Assembly: GCA_963752645.1 (NCBI GenBank) | Contig: CAVVZN010000014.1 | Span: 502,955 to 566,954 of the forward strand | Source: an uncultured Actinomycetota bacterium | GTDB lineage: Bacteria; Actinomycetota; Actinomycetes; Frankiales; Frankiaceae | Length of the DNA: 64,000 nucleotides | Direction: 5' to 3' | In this document: positions 46,646 through 63,233 of the stretch, piece by piece | How positions within the stretch are numbered: position 1 is the first letter of the stretch | Layout: the number at the start of each line of letters is the position of its first letter | Made by a program: the position numbers and the translations under genes | Notes under the pieces: generated by a model | The model's input: only the letters and a program-made list of their open reading frames with translations | Databases searched by the model: none | Told to the model about the DNA's origin: nothing

Positions 46646-46698
46646 CGGTCCAGCATGGAGGAATCGCTCCGGAGCGCATCAGGTTTGATGGAGTGCCG

Positions 46699-56409: not shown

Positions 56410-56615
56410 TTGCGAGCAAGAGTCGACGGCGCCTCACCGCCCGTGACGGAGTCACGCCGACCAGCTTCGCCGAGTTCGGGCGGCCTGAAAGCGTCGGTTC
56501 CTGCCCAACGAAGCATCCGAGAGCGGCACTTTCGAGTGCGTCTCGCCCCCGTCTGGGTGACGCTGTGAGCTGAGCGTTGGATGCTCCCGCCCGGCCGGTC
56601 GCCGACCAGTGCAGG

Positions 56616-56951
56616 TCACCGAGCGGATTGTCGCGCGGCCAGCAGCAGAGCAGATGAGGCCAGCACGAAGCCGGCACCGGGTGCGAGCGGTCCGACGGCG
56701 TACTTGAACCCGAGGAACCTCCAGAGGATCAGTCCTATGACCAGAGCGGCTACCCCAATGATGAGGTTGATTCGTGCGCCGCGACGCGAGGCAGCCAGTC
56801 GCTCGGGATGGTTGAGAGGCAACTGCCGCAGTCTCGCTGACTCGGCCAAGCTCTGCCTCCCGATCACTCGCTCATCGAGCCGTCGCAGGAATGACATCAC
56901 CGTCGGCTGATGCCCTTCACGTCGACCGCCGACACAATCAAGATCGCGCAT
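56616..56951 (-). CDS. small hypothetical membrane-anchored protein (111 aa)
   Basis: ATG at 56951 preceded by a strong SD GAGGGGAG (reverse complement of the 17-nt motif). Soluble N-terminal region then two TM segments (INLIIGVAALVIGLILW and GFVLASSALLLAA). Confidence 0.4.
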   Translation of the reverse strand: MRDLDCVGGRREGHQPTVMSFLRRLDERVIGRQSLAESARLRQLPLNHPERLAASRRGARINLIIGVAALVIGLILWRFLGFKYAVGPLAPGAGFVLASSALLLAARQSAR

Positions 56952-56968
56952 AGCGGCTCCCCTCTGTG

Positions 56969-58137
56969 TCAAGCGGCGGGTGCGGGGGCCGGGTTAACCT
57001 GTCGCTCGGCGGGTCCGGGAAGTGACTTGTCCGAAGAGTTGGCCGTCGGGGTTGGGTCAGCCGCGCTGGACTTTGTAGCCGCCCCCGAGTGTCCTCCCGG
57101 GCCCGTCCCGACTGCCCGGTCGACGTCGGCGCGGAGTTGTCGGTAGACGACGTCAGAGAGCCGTCGTTTCAGGCAGCGCAGCGCCTCGAGCCGGCTCTTG
57201 CCGGCGGCGATCTTGCGCCGGTAGTAGTCCTGACCGGGGCCGGGGTGCCGGATCTGACTGACGGCAATGATGTGCAGGGCGTGGTTGAGCCGGCGGTTGC
57301 CACCGCGGTTGAGCCGGTGGTGCACGGCGTCGCCGCTGGACGCGTCGATCGGCGCGGTGCCGGTGTAGCTGGCGAAGTGGTGCCGGCTCGGAAACCGGCG
57401 CACGTCACCGACCTCGCCCAGGATGGTCCCGGCGACAACCGGGCCGACGCCGTAGATCTCGGGCAGGCTGGTGCCGTGTTCGTCGAGGACCTCGGCGATC
57501 CGCTTCTTCATCTCCTTGATCCGGGCATCCAGCGCCACCAGGTCGGCGAGGTGCTCGAGCGCGAGCTGCTTGCGAGCCTTGCCAACTGCGTCCCGCGGCC
57601 GCACCGAGGAGAGCAGCTCCTTCGCTTTACGTGCTGGTCAGGCGGGCGGCGGCACCGCCAGGAGTGAGCTCGACGAGCAGCCGGTGCAGCCGGTTCACGG
57701 TCGCAATGCGCTGCTCGACCAGTTCGGTTCGCCGGTCGCAGAGCAGCCGAAGCACGGTGATTGTGTCGTCCTGGCGCACCTCGGCCAGCCGGGTCCCGCG
57801 CAGCCCGGCGACGGCGATCGCATAGGCGTCAGTGTCGTCGGTCTTGCGAGCCGCTGCCGCCACCGAGCGCGCGGACCCGGGCCGAGAGCTTGGCGGGCAC
57901 GTTCAGCACCCGTTCGCCGTCGGCGACCAGCCGCTGCGCCAGGCTCAACCCAACCCCGGCGGCACCCTCGACGGCCCAGACCCGATCCCGATGGGCGGCG
58001 CCGAACCGACGCAGCTCCCGGTAGCCGTCCCGGTCGTTGTCGAACCGCTGCTTGCCCAGCACCCGCTCGCGGTCGTCGAGCACCAGCGCGGTGTTGCTGC
58101 GCTTGTGCGGATCGACCCCGATCACTACCTGGCCCAC
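56969..58137 (-). pseudogene. IS110 family transposase with two frameshifts
   Basis: MGQVVIGVDPHKRSNTALVLD... / ...RKTDDTDAYAIAVAGLRGTRL...VNRLHRLLVELTPGG / ...VRPRDAVGKARKQLALEHL...NRRLNHALHIIAVSQIRHPG...RRLSDVVYRQL. Confidence 0.6.
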
Positions 58138-58495
58138 GAACCCTCCCGTTGTCGTCGTTGGACGGCAGGGAGGGCAGTGCTACTTCGAGCGCAGCAGACC
58201 CCTCTTGAGCCACTCCCGGCCTGACGGTGCCCGGCGGGTCAGCACTCCGTTAGTGGGCCACACGAAGCCGTGGGCAGCCGGATAGCGAGCCTCACCGCCG
58301 AGCACCTCACCCGCAGCCTGGCCGGGCCGCGAGCTGCCCCCAGTGAACAAGTAGCCGGATACCGCGCGCCTCGCGACCCCCTGCTGGCGTCCGAGGGAGT
58401 AACCGACCACGCCGCAGGTCTGTGATGCCACAGCCGGGGCCAACGACCGCGCGCGCTCGGCACTTATGCCGGTGATCCGTCAAGGCGGGGTCGGG
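58138..58495 (-). ncRNA. candidate bridge-RNA-encoding left end (5' leader) of IS110 copy C (speculative)
   Basis: Homologous to the copy-B leader and long enough (~350 bp) for an IS621-type bridge RNA. Confidence 0.2.
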
Positions 58496-58768: not shown

Positions 58769-60250
58769 TCACCTCCGGGGTGACCGCTCGGTGTCCGGAT
58801 GACTAGGCCGGGGGTTGGGCGTGCCGGTGGCGGGCGGTGCAGGGCGGATGTTGGCGTTGTGGTGGAAGGTGTTCTGCGGGTCGTACCTCGCCTTGAGCTC
58901 GGCCAGCCGGTCGTACTTGCGACCGTAGATCGCGCGCATCCGGGCGTCGTCGTAGTCGGCAACGCCGTTGACATAGCTCGACTCCTCCTCGGGCGCATCG
59001 GGCTGCAGCGTGTCCCACAGGGCCCGGACCCACGGGCGGTCCGCCTGCTCCAGCTCAGCGGTGGGCGCGACGTCGATGATGAAAGCGCCGAGCTTGGGTG
59101 TCCTGGTGCCCCCGAAGGACGTCGCGTCGTCTGCGGTCGCGCAGAAGCCACCGTCGAGCGGCATGAGGATGACGTGGCTCAGCGGGGAGTTCTTCCTCGG
59201 CAAGTGCTCGGCGATCGCCTCGATTGCGGTATCGCTGAGCGATGTGAGGTACGTGCCCTTCTCGTAGGCGTGCATACCCCAGGCGTTCGGCTCGTCGATA
59301 AGCTGCTGCAGCGCGACGTACGGCATCGGCGTCTCCATGGCGGCCAGCGGCGCAGCCAGCCCCGCCCGAAGCCGTCCGGTGAGCTCGGTGAGCAGTTCCG
59401 GTCCGGCGAAGCTCACGGCCAGGACCGCCAGCCCTGGGCTGAAGTGGAGCTCCGGCGGGACAAACGGCGCCGGCGGGGCATTGAGCCCGACGACGAATAC
59501 CGTGGTTTCGGGGTGCAAGCCCGCGTACAGCTCACGCGCGCGGCGCAGCACATCGCGGCGCTCGTCAAGGGCGAAAAAGTAGAACCCGAAATGCACGACC
59601 GGGTCGAGCTCGTGCAGCCGGAACACGAACTCGGTGACAACGCCGAAGTTCGTCCCGGCGCCGCGCACCGCCCAGAACAGGTCGGGCTCCTGCTCGGTCG
59701 AGCAGCGCACGACCCGGCCGTCGGCCAGGACGATCTCGACCGACTCGAGGTTGTCCAGTGCTAGGCCGAACTTGCGGGTCAGCCACCCCATGCCGCCGCC
59801 GAGCGTCAGCCCGGCCACGCCGGTGTGGCTAACGGTGCCAGCGGGCGTGGCCAGGCCGTGCGCGGCGGCGGCCGCGTCCAGCTGTCCGAGCAGCGCCCCG
59901 CCACCGACGCGCGCCCGCTTGGCCTGCGGGTCGACGGTGACCTCGTTCATGCGCGACAGGTCCACTACCAGGCCGCCGTCGTTGATGCTCGTGCCAGCCG
60001 GGTTGTGCCCGCCACCACGGACGGCGATGTCCAAACCGCGTTCCTGCGCGAAGGCCAGCGCCGCGACCACGTCGGCGGTGCTCGTGCAGCAGGCGATGAC
60101 GGCCGGGCGACGGTCGATGCCGGCGTTCCAGCGCCGGCGGGCGTCATCGTAGTCCGGATCGTCAGGGGCGACGACGGCGCCACCAAGCGCGTCGCGCAGT
60201 GGCGCCAGTACGTACGGGGGCAGAGTGACAGCGGTCATGGCCGACAGCAT
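58769..60250 (-). CDS. FAD-binding oxidoreductase (PCMH-type FAD-linked oxidase, berberine-bridge-enzyme-like)
   Basis: ...IACCTSTADVVAALAFAQERGLDIAVRGGGHN... (FAD-binding PCMH) and C-terminal ...ELKARYDPQNTFHHNANIRP (BBE-like). ATG at 60250 with a GAAGGG SD. Confidence 0.75.
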   Translation of the reverse strand: MLSAMTAVTLPPYVLAPLRDALGGAVVAPDDPDYDDARRRWNAGIDRRPAVIACCTSTADVVAALAFAQERGLDIAVRGGGHNPAGTSINDGGLVVDLSRMNEVTVDPQAKRARVGGGALLGQLDAAAAAHGLATPAGTVSHTGVAGLTLGGGMGWLTRKFGLALDNLESVEIVLADGRVVRCSTEQEPDLFWAVRGAGTNFGVVTEFVFRLHELDPVVHFGFYFFALDERRDVLRRARELYAGLHPETTVFVVGLNAPPAPFVPPELHFSPGLAVLAVSFAGPELLTELTGRLRAGLAAPLAAMETPMPYVALQQLIDEPNAWGMHAYEKGTYLTSLSDTAIEAIAEHLPRKNSPLSHVILMPLDGGFCATADDATSFGGTRTPKLGAFIIDVAPTAELEQADRPWVRALWDTLQPDAPEEESSYVNGVADYDDARMRAIYGRKYDRLAELKARYDPQNTFHHNANIRPAPPATGTPNPRPSHPDTERSPRR

Positions 60251-60572
60251 GACCCTTCGCCGGGTCAGCGGAAGCGGGATATCCGAAACTGACCGCGGGA
60301 TCGTCCGGAGTGTTCGCCCCACGGGATCGGCCGGGGCCGCCGGGTCAGGCCTCGCCGCGCCGGGCCGCACAGCTTGGCCAGCGCTGAACGCTATAGGCCG
60401 CGCAGATCGCCGGATACCGAGCGCTCTGACGCCTGCACGGAGTGCCCGACCACGCCGCTGGTCTCGCTCATGCCGAGGTCGCTTGAGAGGCGAGCGCTCA
60501 TCGCGGCATGAGCGGACCTCGAAGGACGGCCGGAGAATGCCCTCGGCCTATGCCTTCACCCGCCCGCCGCAC

Positions 60573-61691
60573 TCAAGTCGTCGAGCCGCCAAGGGCGCGG
60601 CCGAGCAGACGCGTCTGCGCGATCGCATGACGAGCGTCCTGCCCGCTGACGATCACCCGCTGTCCGATCTGTAGCGGCGAGTCCGGAACGGCCCGGAGGT
60701 AGCGGTCGTCCACGACGCCGCCATTGTGGACGTGTACGTGTCGGGCGGCCCACAGCCGCTTCAGGTCATTCCACCGGAGGCCGTCCGTCGTTCGGAGATC
60801 GATGGCTAGGTGCGCAGCAAACAGGTCGGCCAGATCATCCAACCGCTGGAAAACGTTGCCCTTGCCGCGAAGGAGGGCGCTTGCGTTAGCGACCCGAGCG
60901 GTGAAGGCCTCCTTCGCCAGGGTCTCGATCATCCCGATGACGCTGCCGAGTGTGTCGACGTAGATCCGGTCGAAGACTCCCTGCTCACGGAGCGCCGGTA
61001 CCGCATCGGCCGATATCGAGCCGAGGGCGTCGAGCTTGGCGGTCTCGGCAGCCAGAGCATCTGCCGCCACGTCGGCTGCGCTGAGCTGCCCACTGAACGG
61101 ACAGAAGCGATGGTCGCCGAAGACGGCGTAACGGACCTGGCACGTCGGGCAGGTGCGCTCGCGGATCAAGGTCTCTTCGTCGATGCCCGGGAGGGGTCTC
61201 GGATAGAACGGCTTCGACCGGTACTCGACGCGAATGAAGTGGTTGTTCCGCGTGCTGTGCGCCATGTCGCGGAAGGCCCGGCCGATAGTGTTGTCGATCA
61301 GCTGCAGTCCTGCGTCCGACGCGACCTGCATGAGCCGGTCCTTCTGCTGCTGCGTGATGAACTCGCTGTGCGATGCCTGGTGCCCGCAGTAGGTGCACCA
61401 CAGGACGAGTCCTTCCGGCGCCGCCTCGTAGTCCTGGTGATTGACGCGAAAGATCTGCTGGCATGACGGGCATTGCCGGCCGAGGTAGCCGTGCTCGTCG
61501 AGCGGAATCGACACCTTGAAGACGTCGTGACCGTGCTCGTCCTTGCCTTCGTAGCTCGCGCCCTCGTCCGTCCGGAAGTTCATGGCTCCATAGTGCTGCG
61601 GGTCTCCGACGATTGGGCCGGTCTGCGATGTCTCGAGCAGCTCGGTCTTCATCGCGTGGAGCCGCGCTTCCCGTGAGGACGGGATCATCAA
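60573..61691 (-). CDS. hypothetical protein with two treble-clef-like zinc-ribbon motifs and a C-terminal HEPN-like Rx4-6H motif; function unknown
   Basis: 372 aa. Motifs CPSCQQ-x19-CTYCGH, CPTCQ-x13-HRFC and C-terminal NDLKRLWAARHVHVHNGGVVDDRYL. GC about 62%, against about 72% background. Codons include many A/T-ending Lys/Asn/Phe/Tyr codons. Confidence 0.6.
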   Translation of the reverse strand: MMIPSSREARLHAMKTELLETSQTGPIVGDPQHYGAMNFRTDEGASYEGKDEHGHDVFKVSIPLDEHGYLGRQCPSCQQIFRVNHQDYEAAPEGLVLWCTYCGHQASHSEFITQQQKDRLMQVASDAGLQLIDNTIGRAFRDMAHSTRNNHFIRVEYRSKPFYPRPLPGIDEETLIRERTCPTCQVRYAVFGDHRFCPFSGQLSAADVAADALAAETAKLDALGSISADAVPALREQGVFDRIYVDTLGSVIGMIETLAKEAFTARVANASALLRGKGNVFQRLDDLADLFAAHLAIDLRTTDGLRWNDLKRLWAARHVHVHNGGVVDDRYLRAVPDSPLQIGQRVIVSGQDARHAIAQTRLLGRALGGSTT

Positions 61692-61781
61692 GTCCTGTTG
61701 GCCGACGCCCTCGAATCCGTGCCGCCCTCCGGGTGTACGCGCGGATAGCGGGAAGCGCGTGCTCCTGCTCAGCGGTGATGG

Positions 61782-62115
61782 TCAGGCGACCGGAGAGCCG
61801 AAGCGAATCACGTTGCCGTCGAGATCCACGAGCGCACCTTCACGCTTGCCCCACCCCGTGTCTTCTGGCGCAGAGACCGCTCCCTCCCCCACCCCCGATT
61901 CCCACTCGGCAGCAAGACTGGTCAGCATCTTCGACGAGCAAAAAGGCCGCGCTGGTTCCCTCCTGACCTTCTTGGGCCAACCCCAGGTGGGTCTCGATCT
62001 TGCCGCGGGTGGCGAAACCGTAGTCGGCTGCCTGGTAACGGCGAACCGCAGTGCCCAGTCGTTTTGCTAGAAGTCGATGGCCGCTGTTACGTCCCGCACG
62101 CGAAGATGGGGGCAA
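61782..62115 (-). pseudogene. VOC/glyoxalase-family gene remnant (N-terminally truncated and frameshifted)
   Basis: Frame 1: ...YQAADYGFATRGKIETHLGLAQEGQEGTSAAFLLVEDADQ. Frame 2: ...EDTGWGKREGALVDLDGNVIRFGSPVA* (typical VOC C-terminus). The two frames join around 61840-61880. Confidence 0.4.
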
Positions 62116-62327
62116 TCCGTTCCATCGTCAGAGCGTTGCAGAGATCGACGCGGGGCCCAAACAGCCATACCCATCGCCGATCGGCATGCCATTGACGTCG
62201 TTCTCGGCACTCGAAGAGAGCCGGCCGACCAACCGAATCTCGGCAGAAGCGGGGAATGACCCACCACGCCGCTAGTAGGCGACTTGGACGTTGCAGCCGG
62301 GAGTAGCCGGTCGGACCCTCGCCCGTC

Positions 62328-63233
62328 ATGGCCACCACCGAGCTGCTTCCTAGCAGCACCACTGATCCGGTCCGTCTCGCCGTCGCGGCCTATCTGGCCC
62401 GGTACAAGGGCTGGTCCCGGCTGCATAACGAGAGCGACCTGCGCTGCTACCTGAACTGGTGCGCCCAGCATCGGCTGCCGCCATTGCAGGTCCAGCGAGC
62501 GCACGTCGAACTGTTCCTGCGCTGGCTGCAGGAGGTCCGCCGGCTTCAGCCGTCCACTGTTGCCCGTCGGCTGGCCGTCGTCGCCGGCTTCTACCGCACC
62601 TGTGTCATCGACGGCACCCTCACCCACTCCCCGGCCGACTACGTTCGCCGGCCGCACGTCTCGACCGACTCACCCACCCTCGGGCTGACCCACCTGCAGT
62701 TCGAAGCCCTGCTTTCCGCCGCCCGCACCTCCACGAACCCCAGTGACTTCCCGCTGGTCTGCCTGCTCGGCCTCCTCGGCCTGCGAGTGTTCGAAGCCAC
62801 CGGCGCCAGCATCGGCGACGTCGGGGAGGAACACGGCCACCGCGTACTCCGGGTCCACGGCAAGGGCGACAAGACCGTGCTCGTGCCCCTGCCACCCGCC
62901 GTCGGCCGTGCTGTGGACCAAGCCATCGGCAGCCGGCAAGGCGGCGCCCTGCTGCTCAACACCCGCGGTGCACCGATGGACCGGCAAGCCGCCACCCGCC
63001 GGCTCCGGGCCCTGGCCCGCGCAGCCGGTCTCCGCACCGTGCGCGTGCATCCGCACATGCTGCGCCACACCTACGTGACCACCATGCTCGACGCCGGCGT
63101 TGACCTCCGTGACGTCCAGATCGCCGCCCGCCACGCCGACCCCCGCACGACCATGCGCTACGACCGGGCCCGCAACAACCTCGACCGGCACCCCAACTAC
63201 ATCCTTGCCGCCTACATGTCCTCCGGCACCTAA
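62328..63233 (+). CDS. tyrosine-type site-specific recombinase/integrase (XerC/D-like, 301 aa)
   Basis: C-terminal catalytic box RVHPHMLRHTYVTTMLDAGVDLRDVQIAARHADPRTTMRYD (R..H-x-x-R...Y). N-terminal SAM-like domain. Confidence 0.8.
   Translation: MATTELLPSSTTDPVRLAVAAYLARYKGWSRLHNESDLRCYLNWCAQHRLPPLQVQRAHVELFLRWLQEVRRLQPSTVARRLAVVAGFYRTCVIDGTLTHSPADYVRRPHVSTDSPTLGLTHLQFEALLSAARTSTNPSDFPLVCLLGLLGLRVFEATGASIGDVGEEHGHRVLRVHGKGDKTVLVPLPPAVGRAVDQAIGSRQGGALLLNTRGAPMDRQAATRRLRALARAAGLRTVRVHPHMLRHTYVTTMLDAGVDLRDVQIAARHADPRTTMRYDRARNNLDRHPNYILAAYMSSGT

Follow-up and report, generated by a model that had tools for sequence, protein, structure and literature searches.

Near the end of the 64,000-nucleotide stretch of DNA analyzed here (the window; part of contig CAVVZN010000014.1 of an uncultured Actinomycetota bacterium of the family Frankiaceae), the minus strand carries a gene for a protein in which an N-terminal domain with two putative zinc sites is fused to an all-helical C-terminal domain resembling HEPN ribonucleases (RNases) in its predicted fold and conserved motif. 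Sequence comparison indicates that the gene is one copy of a large, uncharacterized bacterial family. We consider it reasonably probable that the protein is a self-contained sensor-effector of phage and mobile-element conflict, that is, a single-gene abortive-infection RNase.

An AlphaFold2 model calculated with a 33-sequence alignment has a mean predicted local distance difference test score (pLDDT) of 80.5, with values above 90 for residues 180-370; residues are numbered throughout according to the 372-residue maximal open reading frame (ORF). In this model, which provides the structure prediction that the initial annotation of the gene had called for, the C-terminal domain contains helices 1-4, and the stretch from R317 to H322, an R-x4-H motif, sits in the last two turns of helix 3 (residues 307-323). 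In the published description of HEPN domains, an R-x4-6-H motif closes helix 3 or opens the loop leading to helix 4, the arginine is followed by a polar residue, helix 2 supplies a conserved acidic residue near the motif, and inserts between helices 2 and 3 also occur (PMC3710099). All four features are found here: R317-H322 lies at the end of helix 3, H318 follows the arginine, helix 2 contributes E256, and residues 267-306 form an insert. The similarity to the HEPN superfamily is one of structure and motif and not of sequence homology, and the model suggests that the C-terminal domain represents a very divergent HEPN clade, beyond the reach of current HEPN profiles. The only sequence match of this domain other than to zinc-ribbon proteins was a borderline one (E = 0.018) between positions 197-300 of the family profile and residues 238-341 of the FI02838p chain 7dxi_A, covering the F-x-x-RHVL-x-H-x-G-x-x-D stretch; it is probably due to chance.

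Conservation of the motifs was assessed in a close set of 33 homologs (49-86% identity) and a distant set of 45 cluster representatives, in which identity falls to about 22%. Throughout the close set, the block W314-A-x-R317-H318-x3-H322-x2-G325-x2-D328 is invariant, as are C74, C77, C99, C102, C181, C184, H194 and C197; in the distant set C74, C99, C102, C181, Q282, R317, H318, H322 and D328 are still invariant. The two Cys/His motifs pointed out in the initial annotation, CPSCQQ...CTYCGH (C74/C77/C99/C102) and CPTCQ...HRFC (C181/C184/H194/C197), are thus present and, given the invariance of their cysteines, beyond chance. It had also counted two R-x4-6-H matches; of these, R317-x4-H322 (RHVHVHNGG) is conserved, whereas RLWAARH starts with R311, which varies among the close homologs. 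The predicted zinc sites are of the Cys4 type in one case and of the Cys3-His or Cys4 type in the other. At position 200, the window copy and roughly half of the close homologs have serine, while at least 90% of the distant representatives have cysteine; in the window copy, H194 is therefore the likely fourth ligand of zinc site 2. The N- and C-terminal halves are about equally conserved, and the only hypervariable part is the linker of residues 139-165, whose pairwise identity of 0.18 in the deep alignment is the lowest of all segments.

When modeled alone, residues 37-202 had a mean pLDDT of 72; the model shows a long helix, a disordered linker and a pair of zinc knuckles rich in beta structure, and no structural match was found for this domain. 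Zinc site 1 gives weak matches to Zn_ribbon_4 and MJ0042 CXXC, and a search of the family profile against the PDB returned 6htj, a "Nucleic-acid-binding protein containing a Zn-ribbon" (E = 0.009). The sole specific match of this domain is the PADLOC model PDC-M14A (E = 1.6e-20), which covers residues 58-202 with 144 of its 152 positions, is confined to the N-terminal domain and is matched by all 33 close homologs; the protein is therefore not as unplaceable in a described family as had been proposed. A stand-alone protein of 149 residues, encoded on plasmids of Natrinema and Halorientalis, aligns to the whole zinc domain (hhalign probability 99.4%). Its gene starts 6 bp downstream of one for a protein of 334 residues that is unrelated to the HEPN-like domain (hhalign 0.3%) and has no relative in the PDB; by eye only, the end of the larger protein, ...FHDRYIIRD..., is HKD/PLD-like. 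This pair may be the arrangement behind the PDC-M14 model. Since the zinc domain occurs on its own in haloarchaea beside an unrelated partner, it is, judging from these sequences, a separable module.

The ORF on which the initial annotation was based is present in the ORF list, with a TTG start codon. Homologs of about 336 residues begin at the equivalent of M37, and the 36 codons upstream of it show no conservation; for these reasons the true start is probably M37. With a GC content of 65.1%, against 71.3% for the window, the gene lies about 6 percentage points below its surroundings and not about 10 as first estimated, and the description of its codon usage as foreign was overstated: the GC content at third codon positions (GC3) is 0.83, compared with 0.82-0.94 in the other genes measured, and codon usage is only mildly atypical and still actinomycete-like. 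Ratios of nonsynonymous to synonymous substitution rates (dN/dS) of the window gene versus its four closest homologs are 0.16-0.21, within an overall range of 0.12-0.21. The gene is maintained and under purifying selection.

Far from being an orphan, as had been proposed, the gene has at least 323 homologs at E <= 1e-3 in a word-indexed search, the best 120 of which span about 67-95% of the ORF; named hosts are Streptomyces, Micromonospora, Amycolatopsis, Lentzea, Glycomyces and Leucobacter. An exhaustive HMMER profile search of 1.84 billion representatives of clusters at 50% identity yielded 2001 representatives at E <= 1e-3, 828 at 1e-10 and 232 at 1e-30. Among the best 150 of the 2001, most have 320-340 residues and match end to end, with both domains; the extensions seen in members of 400-530 residues contain no Pfam domain. 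A pattern-limited scan of 185,579 species-representative genomes, made with alignment A1 as the distant alignment A4 was too divergent, recovered 53 loci, all from Actinomycetota (Acidimicrobiia, Solirubrobacterales and Actinomycetes). A tblastn search against plasmids added Sinorhizobium meliloti and Phaeobacter inhibens, whose conjugative plasmids encode full-length members with every motif retained, e.g. QQRHLLAHQQGIVDADY. In one metagenomic member of 173 residues (P0147; L064 418-1649), an IS110 insertion breaks off the reading frame downstream of the zinc domain, and some "single-domain" database entries are therefore disrupted genes. The idea that the two domains might also exist as a split gene was rejected, as this representative with only the N-terminal domain is IS110-disrupted and the haloarchaeal partner is unrelated to the HEPN-like domain.

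To compare the surroundings of the relatives, ORFs within 4-5 kb on either side of 52 loci were clustered all-against-all, once with and once without a GC3 filter. No partner gene is conserved across these loci, and every one of them has a different neighborhood. The only cluster found at more than three loci is a tyrosine integrase, present at 9 of the 52 at variable distance and on either strand, and found beside the window copy as well. Many homologs adjoin known defense genes, which include Tmn/YobI ATPases at two loci, one of them with a type I restriction-modification (R-M) operon, containing a Ymh HEPN gene, ahead of the ATPase; Avs2, encoded on the same strand 121 bp upstream; and UzuA (Uzume), an OLD-family nuclease, a DrmA-like helicase, an HKD+Snf2 helicase and a RecD-like PDC-S68 protein. 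The family is associated with mobile and defense islands. On plasmid pSmeSM11a of S. meliloti (L065 1122-5939), the gene is the last of a same-strand trio, following, after a 27-bp gap, genes for a hypothetical protein of 499 residues and a "P-loop NTPase fold protein" of 743 residues; the family member itself has 329 residues. A Tmn/YobI NTPase was considered as a partner and dismissed, because it is adjacent at two actinomycete loci only and the Sinorhizobium P-loop NTPase shares just the Walker A region.

Single proteins that combine zinc and HEPN domains are known, contrary to what was first thought. RAZR (PD-T7-4) is a ring-activated zinc-finger RNase (Zhang et al., Nature 2026; PMC13017515), in which R146A and H154A abolish defense; its zinc-finger domain binds ring-shaped phage proteins, and the activated enzyme cleaves single-stranded RNA nonspecifically (PMC13017515). 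The protein described here has a similar design, with a zinc-finger and a HEPN-like part in one chain, but no sequence relationship to RAZR could be detected. DUF4145 (PF13643) was not detected in the window protein (Pfam, E <= 10) and is not among the 25 most frequent Pfam families listed for 78 members (E <= 1 or <= 0.1). The PADLOC PD-T7-4 model did not match, and sequence and profile searches of the PDB did not bring up the RAZR chains 9Y9C and 9Y6U. The N-terminal domain comprises about 165 residues and contains, besides its two predicted zinc sites, a long helix and a linker modeled as disordered, whereas RAZR has a zinc finger of about 65 residues and a linker at 66-79; the motif spacing is R-x4-H instead of R146...H154; the zinc domain is hypervariable in RAZR and not here; and the hosts here are Actinomycetota and Alphaproteobacteria.

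HEC-08 likewise combines a HEPN domain with a zinc finger or ribbon in one protein, and mutation of H128, the histidine of its R-x4-6-H motif, leads to loss of defense (bioRxiv 10.1101/2024.01.29.577857). Its HEPN domain is at the N-terminus, i.e. in the reversed order, and belongs to another HEPN family (DUF3644/EC042_2821); the PADLOC HEC-08 model does not match here. The PDC systems are 145 phage defense candidates obtained from guilt-by-embedding by Payne et al., predicted from their embedding in BREX, DISARM or type I R-M loci (bioRxiv 10.1101/2024.01.29.577857); the name PDC-M14 was not found in the searchable literature. With PDC-M14A as a homolog, the zinc domain is thus related to a protein flagged earlier as defense-embedded. 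However, PDC-M14 is a multigene candidate, whereas here the domain is fused to a HEPN-like domain without a conserved partner or any other PDC-M14 component in view: the neighbors of family members scanned with PADLOC gave no match to a PDC-M14 model, and those in the window were scanned against Pfam only. HEPN-MNT toxins (HepT/SO_3166; PDB 5yep, 8xdj, 7ae2; HI0074, 1jog) have about 130 residues and are encoded beside an MNT antitoxin that AMPylates them. In contrast, no MNT gene was seen among the annotated neighbors at loci with Pfam-annotated genes, the domain here has about 165 residues with a conserved GKGNVFQRLDD insert and is fused to a zinc module, and phmmer and profile searches against the PDB detected no sequence similarity to these toxins. 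Zinc-ribbon fusions had been listed for several HEPN families as early as 2013 (Anantharaman et al., PMC3710099). The architecture is therefore already known, and what appears to be new, as far as sequences can tell, is a large, unstudied and divergent HEPN-like clade together with an unmatched zinc module.

The invariance of the motif, the HEPN geometry, the lack of a conserved partner, the mobile and defense context and the modularity of the zinc domain lead us to favor a sensor-effector RNase, the more so as RAZR and HEC-08 are validated defense proteins of the zinc-finger and HEPN type whose Arg/His mutants lose defense. In such a mechanism, the zinc module would recognize a trigger, either a protein or a nucleic acid of the invader, and/or drive oligomerization, and the enzyme would be inactive until triggered. 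A metal-independent RNase site would be made up of R317, H318 and H322, perhaps with contributions from E256, Q282 and D328, and two subunits would be needed to complete a composite active site, as in other HEPN enzymes. The triggered enzyme would cleave RNA, bring translation to a halt and thereby abort infection. RNase activity, activation by dimerization or oligomerization, sensing of the trigger by the zinc domain and abortive infection are all proposed here on the model of RAZR/PD-T7-4, HEC-08 and other HEPN RNases. A more tentative proposal, which we regard as possible but rather unlikely as it stands, is that the double-zinc module is a hitherto unrecognized domain of prokaryotic immunity, portable between different effectors and serving in trigger sensing or assembly; in Actinomycetota and Alphaproteobacteria it would be fused in cis to a new, very divergent clade of HEPN RNases, and in haloarchaea encoded by itself.

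Several results weigh against the sensor-effector RNase. The profile searches (Pfam, PADLOC) that the initial annotation had recommended returned no HEPN family for the C-terminal domain: no HEPN Pfam family was found in the window protein or in the 33 close and 45 distant members (78 in total), PADLOC yielded only the PDC-M14A match of the N-terminal domain, and NCBIfam and PHROGs gave no assignment. No HEPN or RAZR chain was retrieved from the PDB by phmmer and two profiles, hhalign against one Ymh HEPN protein (from L005) gave 0.5%, and Foldseek against the PDB found nothing significant (all E > 1). As to context, no relative was present in 50,697 phage records, the window holds no recognizable defense gene besides the target (neighbors scanned against Pfam only), and neither do the neighborhoods L007, L009 and L068; moreover, the tally of defense neighbors given above comes from sampled neighborhoods and is not a controlled enrichment test.

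Four other explanations were weighed, each of which is less consistent with the data than a sensor-effector RNase. The protein might be the toxin of a toxin-antitoxin or addiction module that stabilizes the mobile island, with a small neighbor such as DUF5677 as the antitoxin and element maintenance in place of phage sensing as its role. In two lineages of the closest subclade, a DUF5677 gene overlaps the stop codon of the zinc-HEPN gene by 4 bp, the two copies being 76% identical. In a third lineage (L070), however, only an N-terminal remnant of 47 residues is left, and the gene is absent beside P0001 (L073) and, without a trace, from the window, where the zinc-HEPN gene is intact and under purifying selection. 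As DUF5677 can be lost while the gene is maintained, it is not an obligatory antitoxin, a role for which we had considered and rejected it, and none of the 52 loci points to another conserved partner. We regard a toxin of this kind as unlikely.

To about the same degree, we doubt that the HEPN-like C-terminal domain lacks catalytic activity and serves in binding or as a scaffold; in that case the protein would regulate a mobile element by binding nucleic acid through its zinc fingers, for example in transcription or as a recombination accessory. A non-catalytic role in binding is common among HEPN families (PMC3710099), nucleic-acid-binding proteins have similar zinc ribbons, as the 6htj match illustrates, and integrases are frequent neighbors. 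Yet inactive HEPN domains typically lose the R-x4-6-H motif (PMC3710099), whereas R317, H318, H322 and D328 are invariant here at about 22% identity, and the family is not tied to one integrase or type of element, its neighborhoods all being different. Less probable still is that H318-x3-H322...D328 binds a metal on a four-helix bundle, which would make the protein a DinB-like metal-dependent hydrolase or transferase instead of a HEPN RNase. Finally, an actinomycete housekeeping enzyme for RNA processing, located in a variable region by chance, is highly improbable in view of the few loci in the pattern-limited genome scan, the patchy taxonomy, the changing neighborhoods, the plasmid-borne members and a GC content below that of the host.

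In the window, the gene is flanked by IS110-family elements and fragments on one side and a tyrosine recombinase on the other, as Pfam matches confirm for the flanks named in the initial annotation. Three IS110-family elements in tandem orientation within 5.5 kb (52891-58357) mark a local insertion hotspot; the third copy is split and decayed and is 72-84% identical to the second over several segments. The oxidase gene downstream of the target on the same strand was not seen beside homologs at the 52 loci and is probably unrelated cargo. The spacer between the target and the divergent integrase gene (61584-62327, 744 bp) has a GC content of 64.7%, and a consensus scan found no sigma-70-like promoter or terminator in it. 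An unannotated ORF of 196 codons (62067-62657, -), for which Pfam gave no match, extends over the start of the integrase gene. The oxidase and target genes are bracketed by three copies of a 20-26-nt repeat, GGAGTnnCCGACCACGCCGCnGGT, which occurs nowhere else in the window (3 copies versus 0.16 expected; none of 100 shuffles reached 3). About 50 nt separate the third copy from the integrase gene downstream of it, giving a cassette-like layout, and copies 1 and 2 also have GCCGGATACCG(C/A)GCGC about 35 nt upstream. An integron-like cassette was nevertheless rejected, as a significant hairpin is predicted at copy 1 only (z = -3.3) and the motif is absent from 69 other loci.

Table 1. Positions of the gene, its predicted domains and residues, and neighboring or related features (window coordinates unless a locus is named)
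Feature	Position	Strand	Basis or remark
Maximal ORF, 372 residues	60573..61691	-	ORF list; TTG start at 61691
Most likely coding sequence, 336 residues	60573..61583	-	Homolog starts; ATG/M37 at 61583, stop 60573-60575
Double-zinc domain, residues 37-202	61086..61583	-	Beta-rich core, helix 114-139, disordered linker, second zinc knuckle (predicted)
Predicted zinc site 1, C74-P-S-C77 ... C99-T-Y-C102	61386..61472	-	Translation, conservation
Linker, residues 139-165	61197..61277	-	Disordered (pLDDT <50), basic, hypervariable (identity 0.18)
Predicted zinc site 2, C181-P-T-C184 ... H194-R-F-C197-P-F-S200	61092..61151	-	Translation, conservation
HEPN-like domain, residues 203-372, all-helical	60576..61085	-	AlphaFold2 model
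Predicted helices of the HEPN-like domain	Residues 205-224 (helix 1), 239-266 (helix 2), 307-323 (helix 3), 350-368 (helix 4)		Insert 267-306; structured loop 324-349
E256, acidic, helix 2 (239-266)	60924..60926	-	Invariant in 33 homologs
Q282, GKGNVFQRLDD block of the helix 2-helix 3 insert	60846..60848	-	Invariant in both alignments
Predicted catalytic motif R317-H318-V-H-V-H322 (R-x4-H, polar residue after R)	60726..60743	-	Conservation, end of helix 3
D328, helix 3-helix 4 loop; possible additional active-site residue	60708..60710	-	Invariant in both alignments
Tyrosine recombinase/integrase, divergent from target gene	62328..63233	+	Pfam Phage_integrase, E = 4e-26
FAD-binding/BBE oxidase, downstream of target gene	58769..60370	-	Pfam FAD_binding_4, BBE
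IS110-family transposase cluster	52891..58137	-	Pfam DEDD_Tnp_IS110, Transposase_20; direct repeat families D1-D10
IS110 full copies	52891-53988, 54019-55326		
IS110 third copy, split and decayed	56969-57604 and 57829-58137		
Repeat GGAGTnnCCGACCACGCCGCnGGT, three copies	58396-58421, 60439-60464, 62253-62278	+	Bracket oxidase and target gene
HrpA	46693-50616		Marks ordinary chromosome
DUF5677 genes beside homologs	L010 9164-9982, L071 7017-7805		
DUF5677 remnant	L070 3485-3637		
Haloarchaeal pair, 334 and 149 residues	L067 3988-5447		Natrinema salinisoli plasmid
Haloarchaeal pair, 334 and 149 residues	L069 2988-4447		Halorientalis marina plasmid

Fusions of HEPN RNases with sensor domains recur in immunity, as in Cas13, Csm6, RNase L, RAZR and HEC-08, and the present finding extends this known design rather than introducing a new principle. 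The family nevertheless comprises about 2000 clusters at 50% identity, no member of which appears to have been studied, and it is concentrated in Actinomycetota, antibiotic producers with poorly charted phage defenses. It would be worth adding to the hidden Markov model sets of defense finders, which at present catch only its N-terminal domain, under a multigene candidate label that does not suit the fused form. If the zinc module is indeed portable, the family would represent a single-gene abortive-infection system of a new kind, activated by a logic of its own and not related to RAZR, and the PDC-M14 candidate would gain a mechanistic reading. Lacking a structural relative and occurring with at least two different partners, the zinc domain might point to an infection-sensing mechanism not seen before.

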